A stretch of 64,000 bases of DNA from NCBI GenBank assembly GCA_046483025.1, contig JAWODZ010000126.1, positions 11,981-75,980 of the forward strand. The letters run 5' to 3'. The notes under the pieces were generated by a model, which did no database searches, was not told the DNA's origin, and saw nothing but the letters and a program-made list of their open reading frames with translations. The DNA is from a bacterium (GTDB lineage: Bacteria > Zhuqueibacterota > QNDG01 > CAYUAG01). The first letter of the stretch is position 1; every line of letters starts with the position of its first letter. This document shows, one piece after another, positions 12,826 through 37,876 of this stretch. A program made the translations under genes and the position numbers.

Positions 12826-12959
12826 GAACTTGATAAATTATTAAGTATATATCTTCTATTAAATTAGGAAAGGATTCAATATTTGTTAAAGTTGAATATT
12901 TAGATAATTTTTGATAAATTGGAAAACGTAAAAATATTAAATTAATATCGGGTGTCTAA

Positions 12960-14267: not shown

Positions 14268-14854
14268 AAACACGTGTTAAAATTAAAAATTCTGAAATTA
14301 AAGAATTACTAGGTACTAAACCAATTGAATTCCCAAAATATTCAACACAAATTATTAATTTAGCAAATCAGAATGCTCAAGGTACTAGACCTCCTGTTGT
14401 TGGTCAAATGAGTGAATTAATTCAAGAATTTACAGGGAAATCTATTTCAGAATGGGAGAAATGGTATTTAGCTAGGCATCCAGATGCTATTGATAAAGCT
14501 ACTGAAAAGATATCTGAAATGGTTGAGAAATTTTGAAATGTAATAAATGAAATTGATCGTAATATGATTGAAGATTGGGTAAAAGATTTAGTAATTATAA
14601 AAACTTTTATAGGATTAAAATTTCAAGAAGCAATTTTAAAGAAAACAGCGAATTTATTAAATACTTCATACCGTTTATCTGACTCTTTAGACGAATCTAA
14701 GGGGATCGATGGATATATAAATGATATTCCAATAAGTATCAAACCTGAAACATATAAAACTAAGAAGAGTCTCCAGGAAAAAATTGAAGTAAAATTTATA
14801 TATTATAAGAAAGTAAAAGATGGAATAAATATTGATTTAGAGGAAATAGTATAA
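14264..14854 (+). pseudogene. MTase-coupled partner ORF (candidate cognate restriction endonuclease) interrupted by a single in-frame TGA at 14534-14536
   Basis: Track ORFs 14264-14536 and 14564-14854 are in the same frame, separated only by one TGA and 9 sense codons. The ATGA overlap with the MTase stop implies translational coupling. A D...SIK segment (GIDGYINDIPISIK) is a possible PD-(D/E)xK-like motif. TGA is a genuine stop elsewhere in the window. Confidence 0.5.
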
Positions 14855-14926
14855 ATAAATAGATAATTTAATTATTAATAATCTGATTTTTTTATAATTA
14901 TAATTAAGACAAACAAAGGAGAAATT

Positions 14927-15961
14927 ATGTTAAAGAAAGTTGTAGTTATCTTATTAATTTCTGTGGTGTTTTGTTACTGCAGCGGTTCTTATTCCCCTCC
15001 TTTTAAAAAGGAAGGGCAAATCCATTCATTTTTTAAAAAAATGTCCGATTCTCTTGATATTAAGGTTCTGGATCCTGATAATTCGGTAAAGTTGATCACT
15101 ACGAATTCTTTTTCTATATATAATGGTGATATTATGCCTGATTTGTATCAGCAGTTTAGTAATTTTTTAAATAGTCTGAGTTCATTAAAACAAAGAAAAG
15201 ACTATATAATAAATATTATTAAAGCTTTTGCTGAACAAAAAGCAGAAAACAGAATTTTATTACAGAAGGCAAAAGAAAAAGATGTTACAGTTTCTGAGGA
15301 CAGTGTTATTGCCCGTAAAGAAGCCCTTTATAAAGACTATGGAGATAAAGAAACATATCTTGCTTTAATCGATTCATTAGGGTTGTCTGAAGAATATGTA
15401 ATGAAGAATATTAGGGAAGGATTAAGGATGCAGGCCTTCATTGATCAATATATATTGACAGAAGGATTAGTATTGGATCAGGAATTAAGGCAATATTATT
15501 CCAGAGATAAAGCTGCTACAGTACGCCATATTTTATTTTTAACTCAGGAGAAATCAGAATCTGAAAGAATGGAAATCATAGAAAAGGCTCAGCGTGTTCT
15601 TGGAATGGCACGATCCGGATATGATTTTGCCGAACTTGTGGAAAAATATTCAGAGGATCCGGGGTCTAATACTAAAGGTGGATTATATGAGAATATTGAA
15701 CGAGGTGATATGGTCAGACCTTTTGAACAGGCTGCATTTAATTTACCTGTGGGTGAAGTCAGTGATATAGTAGAGACCAGATACGGCTATCATATAATCA
15801 AGGTGCTGGAAAGAAGTAAAGAGGAGCGTCCTCTTGAAGAAGTGAAAGATGAATTGATCGAAGAGATTCTTCAGCAGAAACAGGGGAATGTTCTTTTTAT
15901 AACCTTAAATTATTTAAAGAATGAATGTGGATATCAGGAACATTTTGATTTATTAGAATAA
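14927..15961 (+). CDS. parvulin-type peptidyl-prolyl cis-trans isomerase lipoprotein (SurA/PrsA-like)
   Basis: Lipoprotein signal with Cys (VVFCYCSGS). PpiC domain HILF...GGLYENIERGDMVRPFEQAAFNLPVGEVSDIVETRYGYHIIKV. Confidence 0.8.
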   Translation: MLKKVVVILLISVVFCYCSGSYSPPFKKEGQIHSFFKKMSDSLDIKVLDPDNSVKLITTNSFSIYNGDIMPDLYQQFSNFLNSLSSLKQRKDYIINIIKAFAEQKAENRILLQKAKEKDVTVSEDSVIARKEALYKDYGDKETYLALIDSLGLSEEYVMKNIREGLRMQAFIDQYILTEGLVLDQELRQYYSRDKAATVRHILFLTQEKSESERMEIIEKAQRVLGMARSGYDFAELVEKYSEDPGSNTKGGLYENIERGDMVRPFEQAAFNLPVGEVSDIVETRYGYHIIKVLERSKEERPLEEVKDELIEEILQQKQGNVLFITLNYLKNECGYQEHFDLLE

Positions 15962-16028
15962 TGATGTTAATTTTGCTGTGAATTATATTCGTACTTGTAG
16001 ACCATTGATGTTCTAGAAAGGAGTTTGC

Positions 16029-16604
16029 ATGATAAACAGTAATGATATTGAAAATATTTTTAAAGAACAGCTTGCAAAAATAGATGATGATACCTTGAAA
16101 GGAAATGTTATAAAAACCTGGATCAAAGCATGCACCCAAGGGAACTGGAACAGCATAGAAGAGTTAAAAAATATACCGTTTACACTTTTGGTTGAAACCG
16201 CGGGAATTAATTTTATTGAACATACAATAGCTGTTACAGAAGGAGCTGCATGTTTAGCCAGGTCACATATGGATTATTATAACACATTACCTTATCAAAT
16301 AGATTTTGACAGAATATATGTCGGAGGTCTCTTACATGATGTAGGGAAATTGGTTGAGATTGAGCCTGATGAAAAGGGCGGGTATCAAAAAAGTCTGTCC
16401 GGGAAATATGCCAGACACCCCATCAGCGGAGCTATCCTTGCGGCTGAATGTGGAATACCAGAGTCTATTGTTAATATTATTGCCTGTCACTCCAAAGAAG
16501 GCGATGGCAGACCTCAGGTCATTGAAACGATCTTTATACATCAGGCAGATTTTGCCTGTTTTAATCCATTGGTAATGAAAGCGAATGGACTGCTCATAGA
16601 GTAA
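16029..16604 (+). CDS. HD/HDIG domain phosphohydrolase
   Basis: H..H and GGLLHDVGK motifs. 191 aa. Confidence 0.7.
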   Translation: MINSNDIENIFKEQLAKIDDDTLKGNVIKTWIKACTQGNWNSIEELKNIPFTLLVETAGINFIEHTIAVTEGAACLARSHMDYYNTLPYQIDFDRIYVGGLLHDVGKLVEIEPDEKGGYQKSLSGKYARHPISGAILAAECGIPESIVNIIACHSKEGDGRPQVIETIFIHQADFACFNPLVMKANGLLIE

Positions 16605-16792: not shown

Positions 16793-18598
16793 ATGGGACA
16801 GACAATGATAGAGAAGATTTTTACCAATCACAGCAGTAAAAAGATTACTGCCGGGGATATTGCAGAAATCAGCATAGATGCCCGTATTGCCAGGGATTTT
16901 GGCGGGGCAAATGTAGTAAAGAATATTCAGTCCCATAATCTTGCAATTGATGATCCTCAAAAAACCTTTTTTACCTTCGACTGTAATCCGGGAGGATCTG
17001 ATCAGCAATATGCAGAGAATCAGCACATCTGCCGTCAGTTTTCCCGGGAACGGGGAATCAAGGTGTATGATATCCAGTCAGGGATCGGTACTCATATTGC
17101 CATTGATGAGGGTCTGGTCCGACCAGGGGGCACGTTGGTATCCACAGATTCTCATGCCAATATTTTAGGATCAATCGGTGCATTTGGACAGGGTATGGGA
17201 GATCGGGACATTGCAGCGGTCTGGTCGGAAGGGAAAATTTGGTTTAAAACTCCGGAAACGGTAAAATTACTTTTTCATGGTACTCCACCAGATGAAATTT
17301 GTGCCAAGGATATAGTGCTGTTTTTATTGAAAAATCTGGGAGCTGCAGGATTATTAGGAAAAGCTGCGGAGTTGGAAGGTGACTATATCCAAACGCTCAG
17401 TCTAAATTCCCGCATAACCATTTCATCCATGGCTACTGAAATGGGTGGTATCATCGCTCTTTTTGCCCCCAATAAGGATGTCCTAGACCATTTTAAGGAA
17501 GCTACTGGAGAGGAGATAGAGCCAGTATACGCAGACAAGGATGCTCGATATGTTGCGGTGAAGGAATGTGATTTAAGTAAGATGGAACCTCTGACTTCCC
17601 TGCCCGGCCATCCGGAGGATGTGGTCAAGGTTACCGACCTGAAAGAAGTCAAAATTGATTCAGCCTTCATCGGATCCTGTACTAATGGACGATTATCAGA
17701 TATGCAAGCAGCTGCTAATATATTAAAGAACCGTAAGGTAGCTCCCGGAGTGGTGTTAAAGATTGTTCCATCTACCCGAAAAATATGGGAGCAGTGTCTG
17801 GAACAGGGAATCATTGATATTTTCATGAAAGCAGGAGCCTTGGTGGGTAATGCCGGTTGTGCCGGCTGTGCCAAGGGACAGATCGGGCAGAACGGTCCGG
17901 GTGAGATCACCATAAGTACCGGGAACAGGAATTTTGCCGGAAAGCAAGGTAAAGGGGAGGTGTATCTGGCCTCCCCGGAAACAGTTGCTGCTTCTGCAGT
18001 CAGCGGAATCATTACCAGTAAAAATAATATTCTGTCAAGTCCGAAAAGATACAAAACGGCAGATTATACAAAATCTGAAAAGAAAGTATCTTCACCAAAA
18101 ACCGAGAAGAAACCGGTAGAAATCCAGGGGCGGGTTTGGGTAGTTGACCAGGATAACATTGATACGGATATGATTTTTCACAATCGTTATCTTACCATAA
18201 CCGATGTTGACGAAATGGGGCAGTATACTTTTGATAATCTCAAAGGCTGGGAGGATTTTTCCGATAAAGCTGAAAAAGGTGACATCATTGCGACCGGATC
18301 CAATTTCGGAGCCGGTTCTTCCCGACAGCAGGCTGTGGATTGTTTTAAAAGCCTGGGAATACAGGCCATAATTGCAAAATCATTCGGAGCAATTTATGAG
18401 AGAAACGGCGTCAATTCCGGTTTTCCATTGATCAGTGGTGATTTGATTTCGTCGGGTATAGAAAGTGGTGAAGAAATAAAAGTGAATTTCAAGACCGGTG
18501 AAATTACCCGGTTAAAAACGGGTGAGACCATTCAGGCACAGCCCTTTTCTGACGTGCAGATGGACATTTATCAGAAGGGGGATCTGTTGAGGAAGTAA
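16793..18598 (+). CDS. aconitase-family dehydratase: fused large (LeuC-like) plus small (LeuD-like) subunits, 3-isopropylmalate/homoaconitate dehydratase type
   Basis: 601 aa. Residues 1-420 are LeuC/HACN-like with the Fe-S ligands ...GSCTNGR... and ..NAGCAGCAKG... Residues about 440-600 are LeuD-like (GSNFGAGSSRQQA). The unfused paralog pair lies at 19927-21677. Confidence 0.8.
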   Translation: MGQTMIEKIFTNHSSKKITAGDIAEISIDARIARDFGGANVVKNIQSHNLAIDDPQKTFFTFDCNPGGSDQQYAENQHICRQFSRERGIKVYDIQSGIGTHIAIDEGLVRPGGTLVSTDSHANILGSIGAFGQGMGDRDIAAVWSEGKIWFKTPETVKLLFHGTPPDEICAKDIVLFLLKNLGAAGLLGKAAELEGDYIQTLSLNSRITISSMATEMGGIIALFAPNKDVLDHFKEATGEEIEPVYADKDARYVAVKECDLSKMEPLTSLPGHPEDVVKVTDLKEVKIDSAFIGSCTNGRLSDMQAAANILKNRKVAPGVVLKIVPSTRKIWEQCLEQGIIDIFMKAGALVGNAGCAGCAKGQIGQNGPGEITISTGNRNFAGKQGKGEVYLASPETVAASAVSGIITSKNNILSSPKRYKTADYTKSEKKVSSPKTEKKPVEIQGRVWVVDQDNIDTDMIFHNRYLTITDVDEMGQYTFDNLKGWEDFSDKAEKGDIIATGSNFGAGSSRQQAVDCFKSLGIQAIIAKSFGAIYERNGVNSGFPLISGDLISSGIESGEEIKVNFKTGEITRLKTGETIQAQPFSDVQMDIYQKGDLLRK

Positions 18599-18939: not shown

Positions 18940-19173
18940 TTGAAAAAAATTTCTATGTTACAATTGCGGAAAAATTCAAAACAAATAATCCAATGGGCCC
19001 GGCAGGGGAAAAAAATGATTTTAACCTATAGGGGAAATCCTGTTTTTCGTATTGAACCTATACAGGAAAATTCACCGGATGAAAACGATTTATTTTATAG
19101 TATAGATAAGCTTGCTGTGGATGAAGGGCAAAATATAACCAACCAGAAAATGGATACAATCATTTATGAATAA
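18940..19173 (+). CDS. type II antitoxin, Phd/YefM-like
   Basis: 77 aa. TTG start with RBS AAAGGAG 7 nt upstream. Overlaps the downstream PIN toxin by 8 nt (ATGAATAA). Confidence 0.65.
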   Translation: MKKISMLQLRKNSKQIIQWARQGKKMILTYRGNPVFRIEPIQENSPDENDLFYSIDKLAVDEGQNITNQKMDTIIYE

Positions 19174-19579
19174 AAATATATTTATTGATACCAGCGGTTA
19201 TTATGCTTTACTTATAAATCAGGATAATGCCCATAGAAAAGCAGTAGATATTTTACATGAAGCAGCTGAGGAGAAAATTCAATTTATAACTTCAGATTAT
19301 ATTCTTGATGAGATTGCTACCTTACTTCAATTTCGAGGAGTCGGGCACTTACTTCCTGAATTTTTTAAAAGAGTTTTCAACTCTCAGGCGTGTAGAATTG
19401 AATGGATGGACGAAGAACTGTTTCAGCAAACTAAATTATTTTTTTTCAAAAATAGTGATCATAAATATTCATTCACGGATTGTTTTAGTTTTATATTGAT
19501 GCAAAGAAACGGATTGGAAAAAGCATTGACCAAAGATCATCATTTCCGGGAAGCTGGATTTATTTCTCTTTTGAGTTAA
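19166..19579 (+). CDS. vapC: type II toxin VapC (PIN domain ribonuclease)
   Basis: 137 aa. N-terminal IFIDTSGYYALL with Asp7, and later D/E acidic residues typical of the PIN fold. Confidence 0.75.
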   Translation: MNKNIFIDTSGYYALLINQDNAHRKAVDILHEAAEEKIQFITSDYILDEIATLLQFRGVGHLLPEFFKRVFNSQACRIEWMDEELFQQTKLFFFKNSDHKYSFTDCFSFILMQRNGLEKALTKDHHFREAGFISLLS

Positions 19580-19926: not shown

Positions 19927-21198
19927 ATGATGGGAAAAACATTTATTGAAAAAATGCTTGCCAAAAAATCCGGTAAAGAATCTGTAGAGGTTGGAGAAAT
20001 AGTAACAGTGAAACCTGATCATCTTTTAACTCATGATAATACCTCGGCTATAATTTCCAAGATCAAACCGGAATTAAAAAAATATGGAGTAGTTGATCCT
20101 GAATTTCCGGTCATTGTTCTTGATCATGTCATTCCGGCTGCCAGTGAAAAGAATGCATCCGGTCATAAAAAAATACGCGAGTTTGTAAAAGAACATTCCC
20201 TGATAAATTTTTTTGATATTGGAGAAGGAATCTGTCACCAGGTAGTGTATGAAAAGGGACTGGCTTTACCGGGAATGCTGGTGGTTGGAAGTGATTCCCA
20301 CACCTGTTCTTATGGTGCAGTGGGAGCCATGTCAATCGGAATTGACAGAACCGAAGCAGCAAGCTTACTGCTTACCGGTGAAATGTGGCTAAAGGTGGTT
20401 CCAACTATCAAGGTAACTGTTAAGGGTACACTGCAGCCCGGTGTGTCTGCCAAAGATGTCATCCTATATTTTATTGGTAGAATAGGTGCAGATGGTGCTA
20501 CCTACTGTGCAGTAGAATTTCACGGAGAAGTAGAGAATCTCAGCATGGATGAGCGCTTTACCATTGCCAATATGGGAATTGAAATGGGAGCCAAGATAGC
20601 AGTTTTTCCGGTGGATACTCTAACCAGAGAGTTTTTATCTTCGATAGGTATTAAGTCCGGTAGTTACAAGGAAGTTTGGGCTGATAAAGATGCTGAGTAT
20701 ATGGAGGAGCTAACCATTAATCTAAATGAGATCACGCCGGTGATTGCCAAACCGCATACGGTTGACAATGTAGTTAAGATCAGTGAAGTTAAGGGAACAT
20801 CCATTGATCAGGGATTGATCGGGACCTGTACCAATGGCAGATTAAGTGATTTCAGAGAAGCTGCAGAAATTCTTAAGGGGAAAAAGATTGCTAAAAATTT
20901 CCGGCTTTTAATTCTTCCGGCTTCCAGAAATATTTATCGACAGTTAGTGAAAGAGGGATTAATGGATACTCTGGTGGAATCAGGGGGAGTTATACTGCCC
21001 CCGGGTTGCGGTCCCTGTCTGGGGGCGCACCAGGGAGCTCTGGCTCCGAAAGAGACATGTCTGAGTACGGCAAACCGGAATTTCAAAGGGCGTATGGGTT
21101 GCAAGGAAGCAGAAATCTATCTGGGAAGTGCTCAAACAGTCGCAGCATCTGCTCTGTATGGTAAAATAACTGATCCCAGAAAGGAGATTAAAAAATGA
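19927..21198 (+). CDS. leuC: 3-isopropylmalate/homoaconitate dehydratase large subunit (archaeal-type LeuC)
   Basis: 423 aa. Motifs ..GSDSHT.., GTCTNGR and PGCGPCLG. Confidence 0.85.
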   Translation: MMGKTFIEKMLAKKSGKESVEVGEIVTVKPDHLLTHDNTSAIISKIKPELKKYGVVDPEFPVIVLDHVIPAASEKNASGHKKIREFVKEHSLINFFDIGEGICHQVVYEKGLALPGMLVVGSDSHTCSYGAVGAMSIGIDRTEAASLLLTGEMWLKVVPTIKVTVKGTLQPGVSAKDVILYFIGRIGADGATYCAVEFHGEVENLSMDERFTIANMGIEMGAKIAVFPVDTLTREFLSSIGIKSGSYKEVWADKDAEYMEELTINLNEITPVIAKPHTVDNVVKISEVKGTSIDQGLIGTCTNGRLSDFREAAEILKGKKIAKNFRLLILPASRNIYRQLVKEGLMDTLVESGGVILPPGCGPCLGAHQGALAPKETCLSTANRNFKGRMGCKEAEIYLGSAQTVAASALYGKITDPRKEIKK

Positions 21199-21677
21199 AG
21201 GTATGGAAATATAGTGATGATATTAATACTGATATGCTTTTCCCGGGTAAATATACCTATACCTGTTCCACACCCGAGGAAATCAAACCTCATTTACTGG
21301 AAGATTTGGATCCTGATTTCAACAAGCAGGTCCAACCAGGGGATGTTATTTTTGCCGGAAAGAATTTTGGCTGCGGCAGTTCACGAGAACAGCCGGCTGT
21401 AGGATTAAAACATGTGGGGATAGCAGCAATAGTAGCAAAAAGTTTTTCCAGAATTTTTTACCGTGCCTCTTTAAATCAGGGATTACTACTTATAGAATCT
21501 CCTGAAAGTGTGGAAGCTTATACTTCCGGGGATCAGGTAGAGATAAAAGCCAGGGAAGGGAAAATATTGGTTGGGGATAAAGAATTTAGCTTTCCCCGAC
21601 TCCCTGATTCTATTATCGGAATAATGGAAGCAGGTGGATTACTGGAATATACTCGGAGGAGGTTGGGAAAAAGTTAG
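21195..21677 (+). CDS. leuD: 3-isopropylmalate/homoaconitate dehydratase small subunit (LeuD)
   Basis: 160 aa. GKNFGCGSSREQ motif. Its ATGA overlaps the leuC stop. Confidence 0.85.
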   Translation: MKVWKYSDDINTDMLFPGKYTYTCSTPEEIKPHLLEDLDPDFNKQVQPGDVIFAGKNFGCGSSREQPAVGLKHVGIAAIVAKSFSRIFYRASLNQGLLLIESPESVEAYTSGDQVEIKAREGKILVGDKEFSFPRLPDSIIGIMEAGGLLEYTRRRLGKS

Positions 21678-21842: not shown

Positions 21843-23138
21843 GTGATGATGCGATTATATGAGAATGAATCAAAGAAAATTTTCACTCGTCAAGGAATTC
21901 CGGTTCCCGGTCAGCTGGGAATAATATGCAGATCCAAGGAAGTTAAAAAAGTTTTAAAAGAGAGTGACTTCCCGGTGATGTTGAAATCTTTAATACTGGT
22001 AGGAGGAAGAGGAAAAGCAGGAGGAATAAAAAAGGCAAACAATGTTGCAGAAGCAGAAAGGAATGCCAAGAAGATTTTAAAAATGAGAATCAAGGGATAT
22101 CCGGTTGAAATGCTCATGCTGGAAAAGGCGGTTGTAGAAAACAGTGCAGTATATCTGGGAGTAACCATGAATCCTGAAACCTATAACAATATCATTATTG
22201 TAAGTCCCTCCGGAGGAGTAGATATTGAAACTGTAGCCAATGAGACTCCGGAGTTAATTTTCAGGTTGGAGTTGAAAGAAAATGAAAAGATCCTGCCGGA
22301 TGCTGCTGCTCAAAATGCTTCCGATTTTTTGACTGAGCATCTGGATACAGATGCTCAGTTCAATAATGAATTAAAAGACATTATTTCCATACTCTATAAT
22401 ACTTATCAAAAGCTGGACTGTAAAACTGCAGAGATTAATCCTTTGATTATCACTCCTGAAGGTCCGGTGGCAGCGGATGCCAAAATTGTGCTGGATGATA
22501 ATGCTCTGTTCAGACAAAAAGAAGTTTTCGGATTGCTGGGCATAAAAGAAGTCAGACATGATGTTTCCGAACCTACCAGAAATGAAGTCAGGGCTAGAGA
22601 GGCCGGATTTCCCTATGTTGATTTGCTTTCTGAAGATCACAAAAAAGACAATGATAAACTCTATGTTGGTCTGGTACCCGGGGGTGCCGGATATGGAATA
22701 TTTTCCATTGATGAAGTAGCCAATGTAGGAGAACGATTCTTTGACGGTCGAGTGATTCCGGTAAATTTTATGGATTCCGGGGGAGGTCCCTCCCTGGAGA
22801 AAGTTGCTGAAATGTTTCATTTGTTAATGGATTATAAGATTGTGGATTTAATTATTACTTCCAGATTCGGGGGTATTTCTTCCTGTGATACTTTTATCAA
22901 AGGATTGATTCAAGCAATTCTGGACCGGTTCAGATCAGGCAGGAGAATGATTCCTGTGTATGGCCGCATGGTGGGAACAGATCTTCCCAGTGCACGGGAA
23001 TATTTAGATAAAGCCAAGCAAAGATATTCAGAAGAATTAAAGGATATGGATATAACCGTTGGTAATAAAAAGATAATGGCAGAAGTTATCCGAGAAGGTA
23101 TTGAAAAAGCATTTAATAATAAGGAAAGGAAATCATGA
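21843..23138 (+). CDS. aclB: ATP-citrate lyase small subunit (ATP-grasp, SucC-like)
   Basis: 431 aa ATP-grasp fold (..VMLKSLILVGGRGKAGG..). Translationally coupled to the downstream large subunit (ATGA overlap at 23135). Confidence 0.75.
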   Translation: MMMRLYENESKKIFTRQGIPVPGQLGIICRSKEVKKVLKESDFPVMLKSLILVGGRGKAGGIKKANNVAEAERNAKKILKMRIKGYPVEMLMLEKAVVENSAVYLGVTMNPETYNNIIIVSPSGGVDIETVANETPELIFRLELKENEKILPDAAAQNASDFLTEHLDTDAQFNNELKDIISILYNTYQKLDCKTAEINPLIITPEGPVAADAKIVLDDNALFRQKEVFGLLGIKEVRHDVSEPTRNEVRAREAGFPYVDLLSEDHKKDNDKLYVGLVPGGAGYGIFSIDEVANVGERFFDGRVIPVNFMDSGGGPSLEKVAEMFHLLMDYKIVDLIITSRFGGISSCDTFIKGLIQAILDRFRSGRRMIPVYGRMVGTDLPSAREYLDKAKQRYSEELKDMDITVGNKKIMAEVIREGIEKAFNNKERKS

Positions 23139-25279
23139 AGCAAAAAATAAATGCTACTGAAGGAATGCTCTATTATATTGTAGAAAAGATACGGCCGAAA
23201 CTGGCTGAAAAGATAAAAAAGACCAATGAGCTGGAAACCATGATTATTGGATTGGGGGGACAGGGTACTAAACATGCAGGATTGATGAAAGAATTTGGAA
23301 CAAATGTAACTGCAGGGGTTGCTCCGGGAAAGGGGGGAAGAAGGGTACATGAAACTATTCCGGTCTATAATACAATTCAAGAGACTTTGGAAAACCACCC
23401 GAATATTGTAGCAGCCAGTATCTGGAGACATTATTCTACTGCAAAAAATTCTGCTGTTGAAGCTATTGAAGCAGGGATACCGCTGATTGTTTTAATTTCT
23501 GAGTTTATTCCTCTGAAAGATGTACGAGATATTCTCATTACAGCCAGAAAACATAATACTCTCTTAATCGGCGGCAATACTCCGGGTTTGATATTTCCTC
23601 CGGAAAGGATTAAAATCGGAATGCTTCCTGATGTTTTTCAGCCCCAGGTGAAAAAATCCGGTCAGTTGGGATCAAAAGGGGTTACCATTATTTCCAGAAG
23701 CGGAGCAATTCTGTATCATATGTCGGATGCAATGTCCAGTGTGGGGATAGCCCAGAATGCAGTTATCGGAGTGGGAGGAGATGGAGCTATTGGTTCAACT
23801 TTTAAAGATTTGGTACCTCTGGCCATGGAATATAAGAATACAGATGCAGTGGTGGTGGCAGGTGAGATCGGAGGATGTCAGGAAGAAGTTCTGGCCCGGG
23901 ATATGAAAGAGAATCCGGAGAAATATCCCAAACCCTTAATAGCTTTAATTTCCGGGGCCCATGCTCCGGAAGGAAAAACCATGGGACATGCAGGTGCAAT
24001 AGTAACTCCGGGAGGAGAAACCGGAACTTTCGCTTCCAAAAAGAAAGCTTTAGAAGAAGCGGGTGTGATAGTTGTTAACAGTCAATATGATTTAATTACA
24101 GCTGTTCAGAAAGCACTTCAGGATAAACAATATTTCGATCCGAAAGAATATTATAAAAAAATGAAAGAAAAATGGGAGGCACCTCCTCCTGAGCCCAGCT
24201 GGGGAACTATGATCACAGAGGTTAAGCCTAATAATTTGATAATCAGAGGATACGGACTACAGGATATTATAGAAAGTACTTCTCTTCTTTCTGCTGCTAG
24301 CTTAATTCTTCAAGGCGAGATTTTAGATGAACGATACGGCAGAGCGTTGAACAAACTTGCCTGTGATGCTGCCAAAAAGAGAGCACCTGAAATCCCTCAT
24401 AATCCGGATGAAGATATCTCCAAGAGTTTACAGAAGTATTTATTAAACGATGAAGAGCTGGTAAGTTTTGAGCCTCAGGGTGAAAACAGACCGGTTGAAA
24501 AATCCATCTATTGTCTGGGACGTTTTTGCTCCTATTTAGCTGATTCCCTGGGTAATCAAAAAGTCTTGATGGAAAAAAGTGATAGAGAGAATTTTTCTGA
24601 TTTGATTTATAACGCCTTAACCGGGGAATCGCAAAATATAGAAAAATCAAAAATGATAGAAGCAATGATAACGGCCTGCATTGATCATGGTGTAACTCCA
24701 CCTTCTGCTCAGGCTACACTTATTGCTGCTTCAGTGAGGGCAGATTATGAAGTTGCAGTTGCGCAAGGTGTGGGAGCTATTACTGATGTTCATGGTGGTG
24801 CCGGCGAAAAAGCAGCCGAATTTTTTATCAAATGTGCCGCCTTGGCTAAAGAGCGGAAAATTTCCCTGAAAGATGCAACCTATACTATGATGCAACAGTT
24901 CATTACTTCAGGTATCAGAATTGAAGGAATGGGCCACCGCATTCACACCCAGGATCCCAGAAGAGATGTTCTGTGGTCAATAGCAGAGAAAAATAAAATT
25001 TCAGGAGACTGTATAAAAATATCAAAGATCGCAAGTGGGGTTTTACAGCAGATAAGGGGGATTAATCTGCCGGTAAATGTGGATGGAGTAATTGGAGCAA
25101 TTATAGCGGATATGGGACTTGATCCCAAATGTGCGAAAGCAATTTTTATTTTTGGTCGGGTCTGTGGGCTGTCTGCGCATTATTTTGAAGAAATCATTAC
25201 ACAGTCACCTATGCGCAGAATTAATTTTTCTCAAGCTGTATACAAGGGAAGTAAAGAGAGAAAGTTTCCTAAAACCTGA
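23135..25279 (+). CDS. aclA: ATP-citrate lyase large subunit (CoA-binding SucD-like domain plus citrate-synthase-like domain)
   Basis: N-terminal CoA-binding GLGGQGTKH. Phosphohistidine loop MGHAGAIV. C-terminal citrate synthase-type GMGHRIH motif. Confidence 0.75.
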   Translation: MKQKINATEGMLYYIVEKIRPKLAEKIKKTNELETMIIGLGGQGTKHAGLMKEFGTNVTAGVAPGKGGRRVHETIPVYNTIQETLENHPNIVAASIWRHYSTAKNSAVEAIEAGIPLIVLISEFIPLKDVRDILITARKHNTLLIGGNTPGLIFPPERIKIGMLPDVFQPQVKKSGQLGSKGVTIISRSGAILYHMSDAMSSVGIAQNAVIGVGGDGAIGSTFKDLVPLAMEYKNTDAVVVAGEIGGCQEEVLARDMKENPEKYPKPLIALISGAHAPEGKTMGHAGAIVTPGGETGTFASKKKALEEAGVIVVNSQYDLITAVQKALQDKQYFDPKEYYKKMKEKWEAPPPEPSWGTMITEVKPNNLIIRGYGLQDIIESTSLLSAASLILQGEILDERYGRALNKLACDAAKKRAPEIPHNPDEDISKSLQKYLLNDEELVSFEPQGENRPVEKSIYCLGRFCSYLADSLGNQKVLMEKSDRENFSDLIYNALTGESQNIEKSKMIEAMITACIDHGVTPPSAQATLIAASVRADYEVAVAQGVGAITDVHGGAGEKAAEFFIKCAALAKERKISLKDATYTMMQQFITSGIRIEGMGHRIHTQDPRRDVLWSIAEKNKISGDCIKISKIASGVLQQIRGINLPVNVDGVIGAIIADMGLDPKCAKAIFIFGRVCGLSAHYFEEIITQSPMRRINFSQAVYKGSKERKFPKT

Positions 25280-26898: not shown

Positions 26899-29800
26899 AT
26901 GCTTGATAAATATTATATAAAAATGATTAAAAAAATAATTGCGCTGATATTGTTTTCAATAATTATTATTTGGGCAACTACTCTTTATTCACAGGAAAAC
27001 TGGGTCTGGTCGGATCCGATTGATATATTATCTTATGTAAATACACCAGATTTTGATATTGACAGGAATAATTCACACTTACATATTGTTTCAATGAAAG
27101 TGTTTGGGGGAGGGGTTCGCTATACTGAGGTTGATTCACTCGGTAATATTATTATTGAAGCTTTTCCTGTAGACAACAAAGATCTGGGAGGGATTTATTA
27201 TGGTGCAAGTATTGCAGTTGATCAGGATGGGTATCCACATATTTGTTACAGAAAACATTTAGTTGAACCCTGGTATTATCATCTATACTATACTTATAAA
27301 ACGGATAGCGGATGGTCAAATCATAAGTTAATAGCTGCTAATGTTAAAAGAGGATATCTTGTCAGAATGGATATAGATGGGGAAAATAGAGTACATATTA
27401 TTCATAGTTCTTTATCTGATTCTTCATACGGGAAAGTTACCTATTATCAGATCCGGGATGGTAATGTTATGGGCCAGTTAACCAAAACAATAACTGATCC
27501 TTTAAATTCTGAAGATGTTCTTTTTAAACTGGATAATCGATTTGAACTTGAAGCTTCCTATGATGGTGATATTCATGTGGTGCTTGGCTGCCCTTTTCCA
27601 GAATATGGGAAAATTACTTATTTTTATTCTCATGATGCCGGAGAGAGTTTTACTAAATGGGGTCACCTTCATTCGACCGATTGTAAAAGAAGGAAGGGTG
27701 ATCCTGATGTTTTCCTGGATCAGGTTGGCAACATTCATTTCAGTTATGGAACAAACCATGATAGATCTTTAGATAATGAACCATCTGTAAGATATTTACG
27801 CATGTCAGATGATGATATACAGGAACATAATGTTGTTAATACTAAAGGTTCCATAGAAAAATCGGGTGATGATCCATTCTGGGGATTAGGGTCAGTAGCA
27901 GCCAGTGATAAAGGTAAGTATGTTGTTGCTACTTATTTATCTAAATCTGGCGGAAAACTGTGGGCAAGAATTTCTGAGGATGGTGGTGAAACCTGGGGAA
28001 CTCGGAAAATGTTATCTGAGTCATGTGGCGGTTATGAAGGGAGAAACAAACATCTTATAAGAGCCTGCAGAAATCATTTTTATGTAGTTTATCCTGAAAA
28101 TAATCCCACAAAATTGCGTATGAGAATGATCCATTTTGGTGACTATCATCCTGTAGCTTCAGCCGGGGGACCATATTCTGGTAAAGAAGGTGAGTCCATA
28201 GAACTTGATATGTCAGCTTCATCTGACAGCGGCTGGTATGCAGGTATTTCTGAGTATGCCTGGGATTGGGATCAGGATGGGGAATACGATTTTAAAACCA
28301 AACTTTCAAAAACCACCTATACATTTGATGATGATTTTTCAGGAAATGCTGTTTTAAGAGTTACCGATAATTCTGGAAAATTTGATTTTGATACTGCATA
28401 TTTTACTGTTACTAATGTCCCTCCTATAGTAGATGCAGGAAGTGATATAGTTTGTGAAGAAGGGGATACTTTACATTTTTCTGCAGTTGTAGAAGATCCG
28501 GGAGATGATGTGATTTCATTTGTTTGGGATTTTGATGATGGCAATTATAGTGACGAACCAAAACCCACCCATATTTATATTGATGACAGCACTTATAATG
28601 TTACTGTGAGGGTAGATGATGGAGATGGCGGTGTAAGTGAGGATGAAATAGTGTGTCATGTCAATAATTGTGATCCGATAGCTGATGCAGGAGGGCCATA
28701 TGTTGGGGTGATAAAATCTGATATCTTATTAAAGGCAGAGGTGTACGACAAAGGAGCTGGGGATTCAATTATTTATAAAAGATGGGATTTAGATAATGAT
28801 AATATTTTTGAAACCTCGGGATATGAAGCTGTAGTAAATTATGAACAGGCCGGGACTTATATTGTGTGGTTTAAAGCAGGAGATGATGATGGAGGAGTAG
28901 GATCAGACAGCGCAGTTGTTTTAGTTTCATGTGAAGCGCCCTATATATCATCTATACCTAATCAGTCAATTGATGAGGGGGGTACATTCCAGGAAGTAGA
29001 ACTGGATAATTATGTGTATGATCAGGATCATACTGTAGATCAGTTGGAATGGAGTTTTAAAGGAAATGAAGTCTTGGATGTTTCAATTAATGAACGAATA
29101 TTGTTTGTTTGTGTTCCGGATAGTAATTGGTGGGGAGAGGAAAAAATTACTTTAATGGTTAGAGATCCAGTGGATAACAAGGATAGTTGTGAGGTTTTAT
29201 TTACAGTACACCCGGTAAATGATCCTCCCCGATGGATTAGCATAGATAAATTTTCTTTTACTGAAGATGATTCACTTATTATTGGATATCAGGAATTTTA
29301 TGATCATGTTGAAGATATTGATGATGAATTAGAAGATTTACGTTTTGACATTGAAGGTAATGTTAATATACAATGGTACACAGACTATAATAGAGAAATT
29401 TTTTGTTTGTTTGCTCCCCCCGATTGGTATGGTACAGAAGAATTAACGTTTATTGTAATTGATACCTCTGATGCCAGAGATCAAATTCAAAATACAGTAT
29501 CTGTTTATGATGATAAGTCTGATCCTCCCTTACCGTTTGATTTAATTCAACCATTATCTTATTCTTTTAAACACTGGCCGGATACCATTAAATTTATATG
29601 GCACAGTACCACTGATCCGGATTCAGAAAGTTATGTATTTTATAAATGGGAGTTAAGGTCTCAGGGTGGGGGTGTTGTTGTTGATAATAAAACATTTTTA
29701 AATGAGGAAGATACAGTTTTTTACCATCAACCTGATACAACTCTTCCTGCCGGTACCTATCTTTGGAATGTTACGGCGTACGATGAACAAAATTATAGTT

Positions 29801-30153
29801 TTAAAGCTTATCCTCCCGGATCATTAATATTGGAACGTCCTACTGCTGTTGAGAAGAACAGAGCTTCTGTCCCCAATGACTTCAGACTTTTAGAAAACTA
29901 TCCCAATCCATTTAATCCTGAGACAAAAATAAAATATGAATTACCTGTTGCAGGAAATGTAACAATTAAAATTTATAATATGATGGGTCAGCAGGTACGA
30001 ACCCTGGTAAATGGTTTTGAAGAAGCTGGATATCATCAGGTTATTTGGGATGGATGTAATGATAAGGCAAATAAGGTGCCCAGCGGGATGTATATATATA
30101 TCATGCAATGTGGTTCGCATGTACGTATGCAGAAAGCATTATTAATGAAGTAG
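26899..30153 (+). CDS. large secreted multidomain protein with BNR/Asp-box beta-propeller, PKD/cadherin-like repeats and a T9SS C-terminal sorting domain
   Basis: Signal peptide. Asp-box SxDxGxTW motifs (SHDAGESFTKW, SEDGGETWG). Repeated D-rich Ig-like modules. C-terminal ...NYPNPFNPETKIKYELPVAGNVTIKIYNMMGQQVRTLV... is the type A Por-secretion CTD. Confidence 0.8.
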   Translation: MLDKYYIKMIKKIIALILFSIIIIWATTLYSQENWVWSDPIDILSYVNTPDFDIDRNNSHLHIVSMKVFGGGVRYTEVDSLGNIIIEAFPVDNKDLGGIYYGASIAVDQDGYPHICYRKHLVEPWYYHLYYTYKTDSGWSNHKLIAANVKRGYLVRMDIDGENRVHIIHSSLSDSSYGKVTYYQIRDGNVMGQLTKTITDPLNSEDVLFKLDNRFELEASYDGDIHVVLGCPFPEYGKITYFYSHDAGESFTKWGHLHSTDCKRRKGDPDVFLDQVGNIHFSYGTNHDRSLDNEPSVRYLRMSDDDIQEHNVVNTKGSIEKSGDDPFWGLGSVAASDKGKYVVATYLSKSGGKLWARISEDGGETWGTRKMLSESCGGYEGRNKHLIRACRNHFYVVYPENNPTKLRMRMIHFGDYHPVASAGGPYSGKEGESIELDMSASSDSGWYAGISEYAWDWDQDGEYDFKTKLSKTTYTFDDDFSGNAVLRVTDNSGKFDFDTAYFTVTNVPPIVDAGSDIVCEEGDTLHFSAVVEDPGDDVISFVWDFDDGNYSDEPKPTHIYIDDSTYNVTVRVDDGDGGVSEDEIVCHVNNCDPIADAGGPYVGVIKSDILLKAEVYDKGAGDSIIYKRWDLDNDNIFETSGYEAVVNYEQAGTYIVWFKAGDDDGGVGSDSAVVLVSCEAPYISSIPNQSIDEGGTFQEVELDNYVYDQDHTVDQLEWSFKGNEVLDVSINERILFVCVPDSNWWGEEKITLMVRDPVDNKDSCEVLFTVHPVNDPPRWISIDKFSFTEDDSLIIGYQEFYDHVEDIDDELEDLRFDIEGNVNIQWYTDYNREIFCLFAPPDWYGTEELTFIVIDTSDARDQIQNTVSVYDDKSDPPLPFDLIQPLSYSFKHWPDTIKFIWHSTTDPDSESYVFYKWELRSQGGGVVVDNKTFLNEEDTVFYHQPDTTLPAGTYLWNVTAYDEQNYSFKAYPPGSLILERPTAVEKNRASVPNDFRLLENYPNPFNPETKIKYELPVAGNVTIKIYNMMGQQVRTLVNGFEEAGYHQVIWDGCNDKANKVPSGMYIYIMQCGSHVRMQKALLMK

Positions 30154-33847: not shown

Positions 33848-33859
33848 AAAGGATTTTTT

Positions 33860-34507
33860 ATGAAAACCAAAATCATACTGGCTGATGATCATCAGATAAT
33901 CAGGGATGGATTAAAATCTTTAATTGATAAGGAGACGGTTTTTGAGCTGTTGGCCGAGGCCAGTAATGGAAGAACCACTGTACAACTGGCTGAAGAGATG
34001 AAGCCGGATGTGGTGATTATGGATATCAGCATGCCGGGACTCAATGGTATGGAAGCAGCTCGTCAGATTTTACACACCAATCCTGATATTAAGATTATTG
34101 CTCTGTCAGTACATTCAGAAAAACAGTTTGTATCCGGAATGCTGCGGGCGGGTGCTTCTGCTTATTTGTTGAAAGACTGTGCCTTCCGGGAGCTTAAAGA
34201 GGCCATTAACTTGGTCAAGCAGAATCAAATTTATTTAAGTCCGAAAATTACCGGTTTAATTATTCATGATTACAAAGAAAAACTGATTAAAGAAGATCAG
34301 TCAGTATTCAATGTGTTAACCGGCAGAGAAAGGGAAGTGCTTCAGCTACTTGCAGAGGGGAAAACAACCAAACAGGTTGCCGGAGAGCTGTATATCAGTG
34401 TGAAAACAGTTGAAACTCACAGACAGAATATAATGAACAAATTGAGTGTATACAACCTTCCGGAACTGGTAAAATATGCAATCCGCCAGGGTATTGTAAG
34501 TCTTTAA
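33860..34507 (+). CDS. LuxR/NarL-family response regulator, copy 1
   Basis: REC domain (DDH...D in VIMDISMP...K) plus a C-terminal GerE/LuxR HTH. About 60% identical to 58091-58741. Confidence 0.9.
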   Translation: MKTKIILADDHQIIRDGLKSLIDKETVFELLAEASNGRTTVQLAEEMKPDVVIMDISMPGLNGMEAARQILHTNPDIKIIALSVHSEKQFVSGMLRAGASAYLLKDCAFRELKEAINLVKQNQIYLSPKITGLIIHDYKEKLIKEDQSVFNVLTGREREVLQLLAEGKTTKQVAGELYISVKTVETHRQNIMNKLSVYNLPELVKYAIRQGIVSL

Positions 34508-34605
34508 CCAACCTGAATAATTTAGGCTGGATTTTTTAACCTTCCATCCATTTTACAAGTATTTTTTATTTACAGATTAACATCTCATACTTTTTTTCTG
34601 TGAAA

Positions 34606-34622: not shown

Positions 34623-34655
34623 TGTATCTCTCTCCCAATATTTTTTTCTTAGGTT

Positions 34656-35299: not shown

Positions 35300-37012
35300 A
35301 TGGTAAAAAAAGATGACATTTCTATAGTGCTTTGTGGTCCAGCAGGTCAGGGCATAAAGACTGCTGAACAGGTAATGGTGTCAATTTTTCGAAAAGCAGG
35401 ATATAATGTTTTTGCCACCAAAGAATACATGTCCCGTATCAGAGGAGGCAGTAATTCCACCTCTATCCGAGTATCATCAAAACAAGTGAAATCTTTTGTA
35501 GATCGCATGGATATCTTGGTTCCTCTCGACCGGGAGGCCTTGGAACATATTGAATCCCGTATTACCCCGGAAACAATGGTCATCGGGGAAAAGGAAATTT
35601 TACTAAAAGAAGATAAAAAGATAGATTATCAGATCCATGATGTAGCTTTAACTGAATTGGCCGAAGAAGCAGGTGGTAAAATTTATTCCAACATGATAGT
35701 AGTGGGAATTATAGCTGGTTTACTAGATATTGATAGTTCCTTGGTTCATACTTTTGTAGAAGAAATCTTCAGTAATAAAGAAAAAGAGATTGTAAAAAAG
35801 AATATTAGTGCTATTGATAAGGGATATAACCTCAGTTCCATTTTAGCAGCAGATTCCATCATTGAAATCAAAACCAAAGATAAGAACCAGATCCAAAAGG
35901 AGTTTTTAGTTAATGGTGGCGAGGCGGTAAGTATGGGAGCAGTAGCCGGAGGCTGTAATTTCATTGCTTCCTATCCTATGACTCCTTCCACCTCGGTTTT
36001 GACCTTTCTTGCCCAACATGGGAAAAAGTTCACTATTATTGCAGAGCAGGCTGAAGATGAAATAGCAGCCATTAATATGGTATTGGGTGCCTGGTATGCA
36101 GGAGCGCGGGGTATGGTGACCACCTCCGGAGGAGGATTTGCTTTGATGACAGAAGGATTGAGTCTTTCCGCCATGCTGGAGTCACCCCTGGTGATTCACC
36201 TTGCCCAGAGGCCGGGTCCGGCAACCGGGCTTCCTACCCGTACGGAGCAGGGTGATCTCTTGTTTGCTTTGCACGCCGGTCATGGTGAATTTCCCCGCAT
36301 AATTTTTTCCCCCGGTACTTTAGAGGATGCTTTCTTTTTAACCCAGAAGGCTTTTAATCTGGCAGATAAATACCAGATTCCGGTATTCATTCTCACGGAT
36401 CAGTATTTTATTGATTCCTATTACAACATCCGGAAGTTTGATCTATCGAAAGTTAAAAACCAACACTTTATAGTTAAAACCGGTAACGACTACCAGAGGT
36501 ATGAGCTTACAGACAATGGGGTTTCTCCCCGGGGAATACCGGGATATGGCGATGGTCTGGTGGCAGTGGACAGTGATGAACATGACTATGAAGGACATAT
36601 TACGGAAGATTTAGAGATCCGTGCCAACATGGTGGAGAAACGGTTAAAGAAGATGAACAGTCTGGTCAAAGAAGCATTAGTTGCGGAAAGAATTGGTCCG
36701 GATAACAGTGATACTCTGGTGATCTGCTGGGGATCGACAGTTCATATAGTGAAAGAGGCCCTGGAAAACATTGATGCAGATAAGATTGCTGTACTGTATT
36801 TCAAACAGGTCTTTCCGCTTTCTCCTCAGACAGCAGATATTCTTAATAAGGCAAAAAAGCTGATTATGGTAGAAAACAATGCAACGGCTCAATTTGCCCA
36901 GCTTTTGAAACTGCACCTAAATATTGATATTTCGATTAAAGTTTTAAAATACAATGGTCTGTGCTTTTCAGTGGAAGAGGTGGAAAAAGAATTACAGAAG
37001 GTAATCAATTAG
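35300..37012 (+). CDS. korA: 2-oxoacid:ferredoxin oxidoreductase alpha subunit (KorA/OorA type)
   Basis: 570 aa. Fused gamma-alpha organisation typical of two-subunit OFORs. Confidence 0.85.
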
Positions 37013-37018
37013 GAGAAC

Positions 37019-37876
37019 ATGATGAGTAAAAATGTTTACGACATGAGCGATATTGATGTGGCCTGGTGTCCGGGATGTGGTAATTTTACTATCTGGAAAG
37101 TGTTAAGGGAAACACTTTCGGAGATGAGCATAAAACCCCAGGAAGTAGTGATTGTATCCGGTATTGGTCAGGCAGCTAAGATGCCTCATTATTTACGCTG
37201 CAATGTATTTAACGGCTTGCACGGCAGAGCTTTACCTCCGGCTGTTGGTATAAAGTCAGTTAATCCTGAACTTACCGTAATTGCAGAAAGCGGAGACGGA
37301 GATATGTATGGTGAAGGAGGTAATCATTTTATGCACACCATCAGAAGAAATCCCAATATTACCAATCTTGTGCATAACAATATGGTTTACGGCTTGACCA
37401 AAGGCCAGGCTTCTCCCACCAGCCAGTCGGGATTTGTGACCCCGATACAGGTTGACGGTGTTACTCTGAAGCCTTTTAATCCGCTTGTGGTGGCAATTGC
37501 CCTGGATGCATCTTTTGTAGCCCGAACCAGCACCGTGGATACCGAGAAATTCAAGATGATCCTGAAAGAGGCAATAGAGCATCCCGGATATGCCCTAATT
37601 GATATTTTTCAACCCTGTGTTTCCTTTAACAAAGTCAATACCTACAAATGGTTCAAGGAAAACACCTATTATCTGGAAGAAAAGTATGATCCGAGGAACA
37701 AGGTTGAAGCCTTTACCCGGGCTTCGGAAACAGAAAAATTTCCTTTGGGAATTCTCTATAAAAATACTGATAAAAAGAGCTTTGAGCAAAGTCTGACAGT
37801 ATATCAGAAAGATAAAAGTCCTGTTATAAACAGATCCTTTAACCTGGAAAAGTTAGAGGAATTTATGAATAAGTAG
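37019..37876 (+). CDS. korB: 2-oxoacid:ferredoxin oxidoreductase beta subunit (TPP-binding)
   Basis: CPGCGNF motif at the N-terminus, TPP-binding GDG..Y region. An alternative ATG at 37022 has better SD spacing. Confidence 0.85.

Follow-up and report, generated by a model that had tools for sequence, protein, structure and literature searches.

A widespread gene pair combining succinyl-CoA-synthetase-like and citrate-synthase-length lyase modules: a candidate citrate/citryl-CoA enzyme of bacteria and archaea

Two adjacent genes in a 64,000-nt stretch of bacterial DNA (contig JAWODZ010000126.1, positions 11,981 to 75,980; hereafter the window, in whose own numbering all positions are given) raise the question of whether they encode an ATP-citrate lyase (ACL) and, if so, whether they mark a reductive tricarboxylic acid (rTCA) cycle. 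A preliminary description of this DNA had taken them for a two-subunit ACL of the Chlorobi type and, together with other genes nearby, for a sign of rTCA capability. Our analysis places the pair in a predicted distinct ACL-like lineage, which joins a succinyl-CoA synthetase (SCS)-like ligase to a lyase that resembles citryl-CoA lyase (CCL) and has the length of a citrate synthase, and which is widely spread, including among Asgard archaea. The reading that we favour, with somewhat better than even confidence, is that the two proteins form a heteromeric ATP(NTP)-dependent citrate/citryl-CoA enzyme in the role of an ACL, which would have arisen separately from the known forms. The pair alone is not evidence for CO2 fixation. 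The two genes and their parts are as follows.

21843..23138, + strand: small subunit, SucC-like ATP-grasp plus CoA-ligase domain, 431 aa as listed (ORF list, Pfam, NCBIfam, PDB phmmer)
23135..25279, + strand: large subunit, 714 aa; an N-terminal extension is followed by a SucD-like CoA-binding/phosphohistidine module, then a linker and finally a full-length citrate-synthase-like module
23228..24121, + strand: SucD-like module (residues 32-329), holding the phosphohistidine loop MGHAGA
24191..25276, + strand: citrate-synthase-like, or long citryl-CoA-lyase-like, module (residues 353-714), holding GMGHRIH
24326..24649, + strand: the "extra segment" of about 108 residues (398-505)

Architecture of the gene pair and affinity of its parts

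The preliminary description had reported two open reading frames (ORFs) of 431 and 714 aa on the + strand with these domains and both motifs, and all of this was confirmed in the ORF list and by Pfam. The ATG of the large-subunit gene overlaps the stop codon of the small-subunit gene (ATGA), with a 4-nt overlap of the two ORFs. The listed start of the small subunit is a GTG; alignments with its homologues and with SCS beta begin at residue 3, which makes the ATG at 21849 the probable true start and would give a protein of about 429 aa. According to Pfam, the small subunit consists of ATP-grasp_2 (135 bits) and Ligase_CoA, and the large subunit of CoA_binding (residues 34-123), Ligase_CoA (186-311) and Citrate_synt (358-691; 106.9 bits, cutoff 27). 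The MGHAGA loop corresponds to residues 283-288 (nt 23981-23998) with the phosphohistidine at H285, and GMGHRIH to residues 598-604 (nt 24926-24946). When compared to SCS alpha, the large subunit carries a 31-residue extension at its N-terminus and a 385-residue addition at its C-terminus. The SCS features found in the pair are the phosphohistidine loop, the supporting glutamates, the CoA-binding Rossmann domain and the ATP-grasp fold; in the ligase half, H285 and the two supporting glutamates E123 and E244 are invariant in 67 bacterial and archaeal sequences.

As a proxy for grouping, the parts were scored in bits against solved structures (PDB, phmmer), because the trees contain no AclA or CcsB sequences; the trees themselves are neighbour-joining (NJ) trees without bootstrap, used for grouping and not for rooting or evolutionary direction. 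The N-terminal half of the large subunit scored 195 bits against SCS alpha, 112 bits against CcsB of citryl-CoA synthetase (CCS), 110 bits against Chlorobium AclA and 85 bits against human ACLY. Likewise, the small subunit scored 169 bits against SCS beta, 68 bits against CcsA and 44 bits against AclB, and the identity of the ligase parts to SCS amounted to 36-43%. The top NCBIfam match of the small subunit was SCS beta (236.8 bits, cutoff 370), the large subunit reached 219.8 bits against SCS alpha (cutoff 336), and the ACL-specific Pfam model PF24948 gave 44.8 bits against a cutoff of 83. Of the Chlorobi-type two-subunit ACL proposed earlier, the layout and the domain order hold, and the surroundings of the genes are TCA-like, but the scores against PF24948 and the solved structures do not support the type. 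The preliminary description had also named a grouping with SucD-like proteins lacking a citrate-synthase domain as a result that would speak against it; a grouping with SucD was seen, but a complete citrate-synthase-like domain is present. In the AlphaFold model of the large subunit (predicted local distance difference test, pLDDT, 74), SCS alpha superposes on the N-terminal half with a template modelling (TM) score of 0.86-0.89, and the only whole-length Foldseek matches among solved chains are AclA and ACLY, at about 20% identity. Because the whole-length fold is that of AclA/ACLY but the scores favour SCS and CCL, we describe the architecture as ACL-like, with parts that appear to be of different origin.

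Regarding the lyase module, the C-terminal half of the large subunit scored 121 bits against the CCL of Hydrogenobacter thermophilus (6hxp), about 55 bits against archaeal citrate synthases and about 40 bits against the C-terminal module of AclA. Its best NCBIfam match was citryl-CoA lyase NF004866 (201.2 bits, cutoff 245), and an NJ tree, built without support values, places the module among the CCLs. The CCL of H. thermophilus aligns to it as two pieces flanking approximately 100 residues, but the alignment with citrate synthase 1vgp is unbroken. When all were aligned jointly, the family has 108 residues in the columns of residues 398-505 and citrate synthase has 110; in thirteen short CCLs, 6hxp and two other SucD-CCL fusions, these columns contain only 4 residues. 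These residues account for the extra segment that had been suspected in the 714-aa subunit; the segment is of the citrate-synthase type and is missing from short CCLs and from AclA. Because its columns are filled in citrate synthase and nearly empty in CCLs, the module is best described, on alignment, as a citrate-synthase-length unit (about 360 aa) with a CCL-like core. An interpretation of the extra length as a linker or novel insert was rejected, the segment being homologous to citrate synthase.

The catalytic residues of the lyase module are conserved as well. The residues H229, H264, H305, R314, D362, F383, R387 and R407 are listed for citrate synthase of E. coli (PMC13147460), and by motif alignment they map to H518, H553, H601, R609/R610, D650, F671, R675 and R694 of the large subunit. 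All of these positions are invariant in the 67 sequences, except R610, which is found in 66 of 67. The traits of the citrate synthase family (PF00285) were found, namely a full-length citrate-synthase fold, the His/His/Asp triad and three arginine clamps. For the AclA of Chlorobium (6HXJ), H491 and D543 are given as lyase residues (PMC13147460); the motif-aligned counterparts of the ACL phosphohistidine, lyase histidine and lyase aspartate (H285, H601 and D650) are invariant in the same sequences.

Distribution and gene neighbourhood of the family

The family, whose members share 55-85% identity, is present in 77 loci of GTDB species-level genomes. A search of 5.8 billion clusters returned 695 matches; the best 120 of these are 62-100% identical to the window protein, almost all have 712-723 aa, and they are either unnamed or labelled "succinyl-CoA synthetase alpha subunit" or "citrate/2-methylcitrate synthase". 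In a library of 1.84 billion representatives, the fused family amounted to a single full-length sequence and fragments. The closest named relative is a metagenome-assembled genome of KSB1 (80% identity). Bacterial carriers include KSB1, Aminicenantes, Krumholzibacteriales, Eisenbacteria, Gemmatimonadota, Planctomycetota, Hydrogenedentota, Acetothermia/Bipolaricaulota, Fraserbacteria and Spirochaetaceae, and the archaeal carriers are Bathyarchaeia, Thermoplasmatota and the Heimdall-, Hod-, Hermod- and Promethearchaeota, with 57-63% identity between the window protein and the archaeal members. Most of the family falls in lineages that are generally described as fermentative or heterotrophic anaerobes. 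In the literature on Asgard archaea, Bathyarchaeota and Aminicenantes we found nothing specific on the family. Bacterial and archaeal groups interleave in the NJ tree, e.g., Acetothermia beside Bathyarchaeia, which suggests a transfer of the family between the domains.

The nearest proteins outside the family are stand-alone "long CCL-like" proteins of 347-381 aa (38-51% identity), a 725-aa fusion (35%), fusions of SucD with a short CCL of 575 and 555 aa (about 35%), short CCLs (32-38%) and SucD proteins (roughly 35-44%). SucD-like and CCL-like modules occur in several arrangements (proteins P0123-P0143), i.e., stand-alone forms of about 367 aa, the 555/575-aa fusions and the 725-aa fusion. 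Since stand-alone long forms interleave with fused ones in the NJ tree, repeated fusion or fission of the two modules is suggested.

The pair stands at the end of a cluster, the other members of which in the window are the following.

16029..16604, + strand: orphan HDIG-domain protein, 191 aa; of all neighbours it accompanies the pair most faithfully
16793..18598, + strand: fused LeuC+LeuD-like dehydratase, 601 aa, of the isopropylmalate-isomerase/homoaconitase family (NCBIfam, subfamily-level models only)
18940-19173: 77-aa antitoxin-like ORF, overlapping the PIN gene
19166-19579: PIN-domain gene, between the fused dehydratase and the LeuC-like gene
19927..21198, + strand: LeuC-like dehydratase subunit, 423 aa (subfamily models only), with the LeuD-like gene directly upstream of the pair
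21195..21677, + strand: LeuD-like dehydratase subunit, 160 aa (subfamily models only)

The order HDIG, fused LeuC-LeuD-like, antitoxin/PIN, LeuC-like, LeuD-like, small subunit, large subunit recurs across bacterial and archaeal phyla when the PIN insert is left out. The insert itself has the look of a toxin-antitoxin pair that came to lie within the cluster, because related loci have none at this place. The genes for the small and large subunits are adjacent in 75 of the 77 loci. Upstream sequence extends for 5 kb or more in 54 loci; the small subunit was found in all 54 of these, the HDIG gene in 43, the fused dehydratase in 40 and the split dehydratase in 25. Counted over all 77 loci, the fused dehydratase is present in 48 and the LeuC-like gene in 33. 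The domain architecture of the pair, the conservation of its catalytic residues, the distribution of the family and this synteny were established directly.

The HDIG protein conserves the ligand set H65, H103-D104, H130, H154 and D174, a dinuclear-type H/HD/H/H/D arrangement, and has 1929 homologue clusters of about 192 aa with 63-93% identity among the best matches. A sequence search of the PDB gave no homologue of it, and its model (pLDDT 85) matches generic HD folds only, the best being the HD domain of YhaM (TM 0.56). The fused dehydratase scored 302 bits against the aconitase equivalog PRK07229 (cutoff 612), and the specificity loop FPGKYTYTCST of the split dehydratase is conserved. In 19 loci, a beta-decarboxylating dehydrogenase of about 395 aa lies just upstream of the HDIG gene; its best NCBIfam matches are homoisocitrate and isocitrate dehydrogenases, all under cutoff. 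In four of those 19 loci (L024, L029, L050, L060) a two-gene 2-oxoacid:ferredoxin oxidoreductase (OFOR) stands at the head of the cluster, and the resulting order matches four consecutive steps of the tricarboxylic acid (TCA) cycle.

A different neighbour is found in six Asgard loci (L028, L030, L035, L038, L040, L067), in which HDIG- and dehydratase-type neighbours are lacking and a stand-alone homologue of CitF (citrate lyase alpha, a citrate CoA-transferase) adjoins the pair (TIGR01584, 497.8 bits, cutoff 501.45; in L028 at 12148-13692, - strand). No citD or citE was found among the neighbours scanned in L028. An indolepyruvate-type OFOR follows in five of these six loci, and two also have a thioesterase. 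The Bipolaricaulota locus L033 holds both kinds of neighbour, with citF (6988-8589, + strand) ahead of the pair in the same operon and orientation and HDIG and LeuCD-like genes after it. Beside the family pair, L036 and L047 also hold a second SucC/SucD-like pair, which is more distant and is read as the housekeeping sucCD. Scans for promoters and terminators over 15.8-25.5 kb gave nothing beyond shuffled controls, and Rfam and tRNA scans of the window gave no matches.

Other features of the window bear on the organism and on the wider metabolic claims. The earlier argument had drawn, among others, on these two:

35300..37876, + strand: two-subunit 2-oxoacid:ferredoxin oxidoreductase (OAFO_sf 657 bits; beta subunit PRK11869 454 bits)
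38314-38709: desulfoferrodoxin (superoxide reductase)

The second was confirmed as a superoxide reductase. The first, previously called korAB, is indeed a two-subunit 2-oxoacid:acceptor oxidoreductase, but the models that recognize it are generic and assign no substrate. It lies 10 kb downstream of the pair and is syntenic in the closest relatives (L001, L002); other lineages have a different OFOR at the cluster head, and the link of this OFOR to the pair is loose. Immediately upstream of its genes is one of two paralogous regulatory sets (31934-35288 and 55773-59747), each composed of a multi-PAS HisKA_3 histidine kinase, a LuxR-type response regulator and a receiver-only protein. At 26899-30153, beside the pair, a 1084-aa secreted surface protein carries a type IX secretion system (T9SS) type A sorting domain (TIGR04183, 32.5 bits, cutoff 23) and is syntenic in the closest relatives, L001-L003; because of this T9SS-sorted protein, the locus points to an organism of the FCB group (KSB1-like). 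The region 10933-16000 has a low GC content (0.29-0.33 between 12 and 16 kb) and encodes an S24 peptidase and a Y-family polymerase (UmuD/UmuC-like) as well as a DNA methylase-nuclease fusion; directly upstream of the cluster as it is, this region may have been acquired as an island. A metal-handling region at 41068-51926 comprises a YHS-domain permease, an RseC/MucC-like protein, a YHS-fused pyridine-nucleotide-disulphide oxidoreductase, a P-type ATPase, a DUF302 protein and a 749-aa multicopper oxidase. The window opens inside an SMC-like gene (1-1770, - strand) and closes within a ribonucleotide reductase gene that runs past its end (63300-64000, + strand; N-terminal region of about 200 residues with the motif PNLPTLMNAG).

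Proposed function and competing explanations

Under the favoured reading, the SucC-like subunit would bind the nucleotide and phosphorylate His285 on the MGHAGA loop of the SucD-like half. The phosphoryl group would then activate citrate as an acyl-phosphate, and thioesterification to CoA would yield citryl-CoA, which would be handed to the fused citrate-synthase-like module, as in ACL. There, the His553/His601/Asp650 triad and the carboxylate clamps Arg609, Arg675 and Arg694 would carry out a Claisen cleavage that yields acetyl-CoA plus oxaloacetate; run in reverse, the enzyme would be an ATP-conserving citrate synthase. Citrate as the substrate, a channelling of the intermediate from module to module, the direction of the reaction in the cell and the quaternary structure are what we infer from the observations given above. 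The ACL reaction has a standard transformed free energy of about -8 kJ/mol (PMC13147460). With a value so near equilibrium, both directions would be feasible. Moeller et al. in 1987 reportedly found the ACL of Desulfobacter postgatei to run in the citrate-forming, ATP-yielding direction. With the adjacent dehydratases, the enzyme of this KSB1-like anaerobic heterotroph could feed or drain a branched TCA segment (acetyl-CoA + oxaloacetate <-> citrate <-> isocitrate <-> 2-oxoglutarate). Because the carriers are mainly lineages described as fermentative or heterotrophic, we consider such a branched role, making 2-oxoglutarate or draining it to acetyl-CoA, most likely, rather than autotrophy.

Citrate is kept as the substrate mainly because the aconitase-superfamily neighbours and CitF intersect on citrate/citryl-CoA, so that the genomic context points to it from two independent sides, the dehydratases, dehydrogenase and OFOR on the one hand and CitF on the other. 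Several observations nevertheless weigh against our interpretation. All curated equivalog models (SCS alpha and beta, citryl-CoA lyase, citrate synthase) score under their cutoffs, and an HDIG protein, the constant partner here, plays no part in the citrate-cleavage systems known so far. The LeuD-type loops, FHNR(Y/H)L(A/T)(I/V)T and FPGKYTYTCST, lack the arginine of the L-R-(S/T) motif that the genuine aconitase of a type II ACL locus (L078, described below) possesses; methanogen homoaconitase also carries L-R-(S/T) in its specificity loop. Finally, the acid-binding loops of the small subunit are SCS-like (SRFGGISSCD, GRMVGTD) and are devoid of the AN-x-T and RR(G/N)GP elements. A GG-x-x-AN-x-T loop and an RR(G/N)GP motif are common to CcsA, the ACL of M. 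concilii, human ACLY and the type II ACL, i.e., to all citrate-activating relatives that were read. According to Sun et al. in 2010, both motifs are said to touch citrate in human ACLY, where N346, T348 and R379 are presumably the residues of the citrate loop and of RR(G/N)GP. In our family the loops NFMDSGGGP, SRFGGISSCD and GRMVGTD are invariant in 72 members, and the last two resemble those of SCS (NIFGGITRADEV, VMRVAGT). Within the GGI loop, a serine replaces the arginine of the SCS sequence GGI(V/T)R(C/A)D and a new arginine appears two residues ahead of FGG, both being invariant in the family. If citrate is bound by the small subunit, it would be held in the family's own manner.

These loops, which differ from those of citrate-activating enzymes and from those of SCS, leave room for an explanation in which the pair activates and cleaves a related hydroxy-acid (2-methylcitrate, homocitrate or another alkyl-citrate) in an undescribed pathway with the dehydratases, dehydrogenase, OFOR and HDIG protein. 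It would fit the dehydratases and the dehydrogenase, whose highest scores are to models of homoaconitase and homoisocitrate dehydrogenase and which reach no equivalog cutoff for aconitase or isocitrate dehydrogenase (IDH), the LeuD-type loops without their carboxylate-binding arginine, and the HDIG partner, which has no explanation. The homoaconitase-type top matches may, however, reflect only an archaeal-type subfamily and not the substrate; the residues with which citrate synthase binds oxaloacetate/citrate are all invariant, CitF occurs as an alternative neighbour, and the best-scoring characterized homologue of the lyase module is a citryl-CoA lyase. We consider this explanation unlikely. 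The SCS-like loops, together with ligase scores that lie far above those for CCS and ACL, could also mean that the pair is a genuine SCS whose alpha subunit is fused to a citrate synthase or citryl-CoA lyase, combining two TCA activities with no intermediate passed between them. Both subunits, however, remain well under the SCS equivalog cutoffs, and the changes in the GGI loop are family-invariant. If the second SucC/SucD-like pair in L036 and L047 is the housekeeping sucCD, the family pair is not the housekeeping SCS there. In ACL, the hallmark of channelling is that a CoA-binding ligase half is joined to a CoA-ester lyase, as here, and the neighbours are citrate-side enzymes or CitF, not succinate-side enzymes, all of which makes a genuine SCS quite improbable.

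A classical AclB/AclA of the Chlorobi type (type I), or a type II ACL, marking an autotrophic rTCA cycle would account for the domain order and the subunit split, and an OFOR, a ferredoxin-like protein and oxygen-defence genes do lie within the window. We regard this explanation as very improbable, and at the sequence level it appears largely refuted. As regards type I, PF24948 stays under its cutoff, the AclA and AclB scores are well below those of SCS, the C-terminal module is of citrate-synthase rather than CCL length, and the citrate loop motif is absent. As regards type II, the large subunit of L078 shares 26% identity over 304 ligase residues and the small subunits share 26% over 138. 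As regards autotrophy, the family is spread over lineages that are usually called fermenters, no fumarate reductase was found in the 64-kb window, and the only genes of the pyruvate:ferredoxin oxidoreductase (PFOR) family there are the korAB-like pair. Because of these carriers and this gene content, the autotrophic CO2 fixation put forward in the preliminary description is not supported, and its weaker alternative of a reversed or branched TCA cycle is plausible.

Returning to the citrate/citryl-CoA enzyme, a wider proposal can be made, which we hold tentatively and think doubtful. The pair may be the core of an unrecognized, horizontally mobile citrate/citryl-CoA module that further comprises the HDIG protein, two dehydratases which together serve as a two-step aconitase, an OFOR and a divergent dehydrogenase of the isocitrate type, or CitF in their place in Asgard archaea. 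If so, energy-limited anaerobes would make citrate from acetyl-CoA and oxaloacetate and keep the thioester energy as ATP or, via CitF, as acetyl-CoA. This would explain why genomes of Aminicenantes, KSB1, Bathyarchaeia, Thermoplasmatota and Asgard archaea are so frequently said to be "missing" citrate synthase, aconitase and IDH, and the citrate-synthase-length lyase module would be a living intermediate between citryl-CoA lyase and citrate synthase.

The assignment has practical consequences. Surveys of carbon fixation use aclAB or ccsAB plus ccl as markers, and a 2026 survey excluded ccl on the ground that it turned up far more often than ccsAB. Taking the pair as an rTCA marker would lead to over-prediction of autotrophy. 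If it is ignored, anaerobes that abound in sediments, Asgard archaea among them, would be credited with too little TCA capacity. Should the enzyme prove to be an ATP-conserving citrate synthase, it would bear on the energetics of life near the thermodynamic limit. Likewise, a CCL-like core in a fold of citrate-synthase length bears on the evolution of citrate synthase and ATP-citrate lyase.

Comparison with known citrate-cleaving and citrate-forming systems

When compared to type I ACL (AclB/AclA of Chlorobium limicola, 6HXJ; human ACLY), the window pair shares the combination of an ATP-grasp subunit with a CoA-binding/phosphohistidine module fused to a citrate-synthase-homology module, and it keeps the histidine and aspartate of the lyase site. 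In contrast, the overall identity is only about 20%, the ligase halves are much nearer to SCS, PF24948 stays under cutoff, the AN-x-T and RRGGP loops are absent, and the C-terminal module is longer by about 108 residues (about 360 aa against about 260 aa for the CCL type). The window protein also keeps the histidine of the HGGA motif, a position at which human ACLY has no histidine, and its oligomer core is probably different. The CcsA/CcsB and Ccl of H. thermophilus (6HXQ, 6HXP) resemble the pair in their SCS descent, their CCL-like lyase and the same catalytic residues, including the HGGA histidine. In the window, however, the lyase is fused to the CcsB-like half and carries the citrate-synthase-type segment of 108 residues that is absent in Ccl; the two subunits score lower against CcsA and CcsB than against SCS, and the citrate-loop motif of CcsA is absent.

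A type II ACL was reportedly postulated by Hugler and Sievert in 2011. The postulated enzyme (Magnetococcus Mmc1_3638/3639, tubeworm symbionts) is known from genomes only (PMC6783814, PMC3522073, PMC6315080). By scanning metagenome contigs with the published primer acl2F1 (PMC3522073), one such locus was recovered, L078 (contig Ga0256843_1000118, 570-9410), which encodes a 423-aa AclB-like protein, a 905-aa AclA-like protein, a 743-aa monomeric IDH and a 639-aa aconitase. The 905-aa subunit contains both peptides of the primers acl2F1 and acl2R1, VAKEEWF and NGFEAIA, and from its gene content L078 is identified as a complete copy of the published symbiont-type rTCA cluster. In BLASTP, the similarity of the large subunits reported above is confined to the ligase part, with the C-terminal part being unalignable, and that of the small subunits is of the same order. 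The C-terminal part of the 905-aa protein gave no citrate synthase or CCL match at E<1e-5 in the PDB phmmer search. The two systems are alike in being non-canonical two-subunit putative ACLs that adjoin TCA genes. They differ in the size of the large subunit, in the ACL/CCS-type loops of the type II small subunit and in the type II neighbours, a monomeric IDH and a standard aconitase. Assignment of our pair to type II ACL was rejected after this locus had been recovered.

In comparison with SucC/SucD, both parts of the window pair lie under the equivalog cutoffs; the alpha-like half has N- and C-terminal additions, the acid loop carries family-specific changes, and the gene neighbourhood is another one. 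With respect to citrate synthase and 2-methylcitrate synthase, the window module shows 15-20% identity and falls far under all citrate synthase equivalog cutoffs; given its fusion to a CoA ligase, hydrolysis of citryl-CoA is presumably not among its reactions. The last known system to be considered is the fused ccsB-ccl "heterodimeric ACL" of Planctomycetes bacterium DG_20, which was proposed from phylogeny (Thiel et al. 2017, PMC5459899). It consists of SCS alpha/beta and a domain of the CS_ACL-C_CCL superfamily, branches between CCS/CCL and type II ACL, and has an unfused version in a thermophilic relative (PMC5459899). In contrast to our analysis, that paper takes the enzyme, known there from a few Planctomycetes, for a marker of the rTCA cycle; its broad occurrence in bacteria and archaea, the citrate-synthase-length module, the SCS-like loops and the HDIG, dehydratase and CitF neighbourhoods are not part of it. 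Loci of the window family include Planctomycetota and Spirochaetaceae, and stand-alone relatives of 367 aa exist, as they do in OTU-14 of that paper. Judged by description only, the DG_20 fusion is probably a member of the window family, and its unfused version probably corresponds to these stand-alone relatives.

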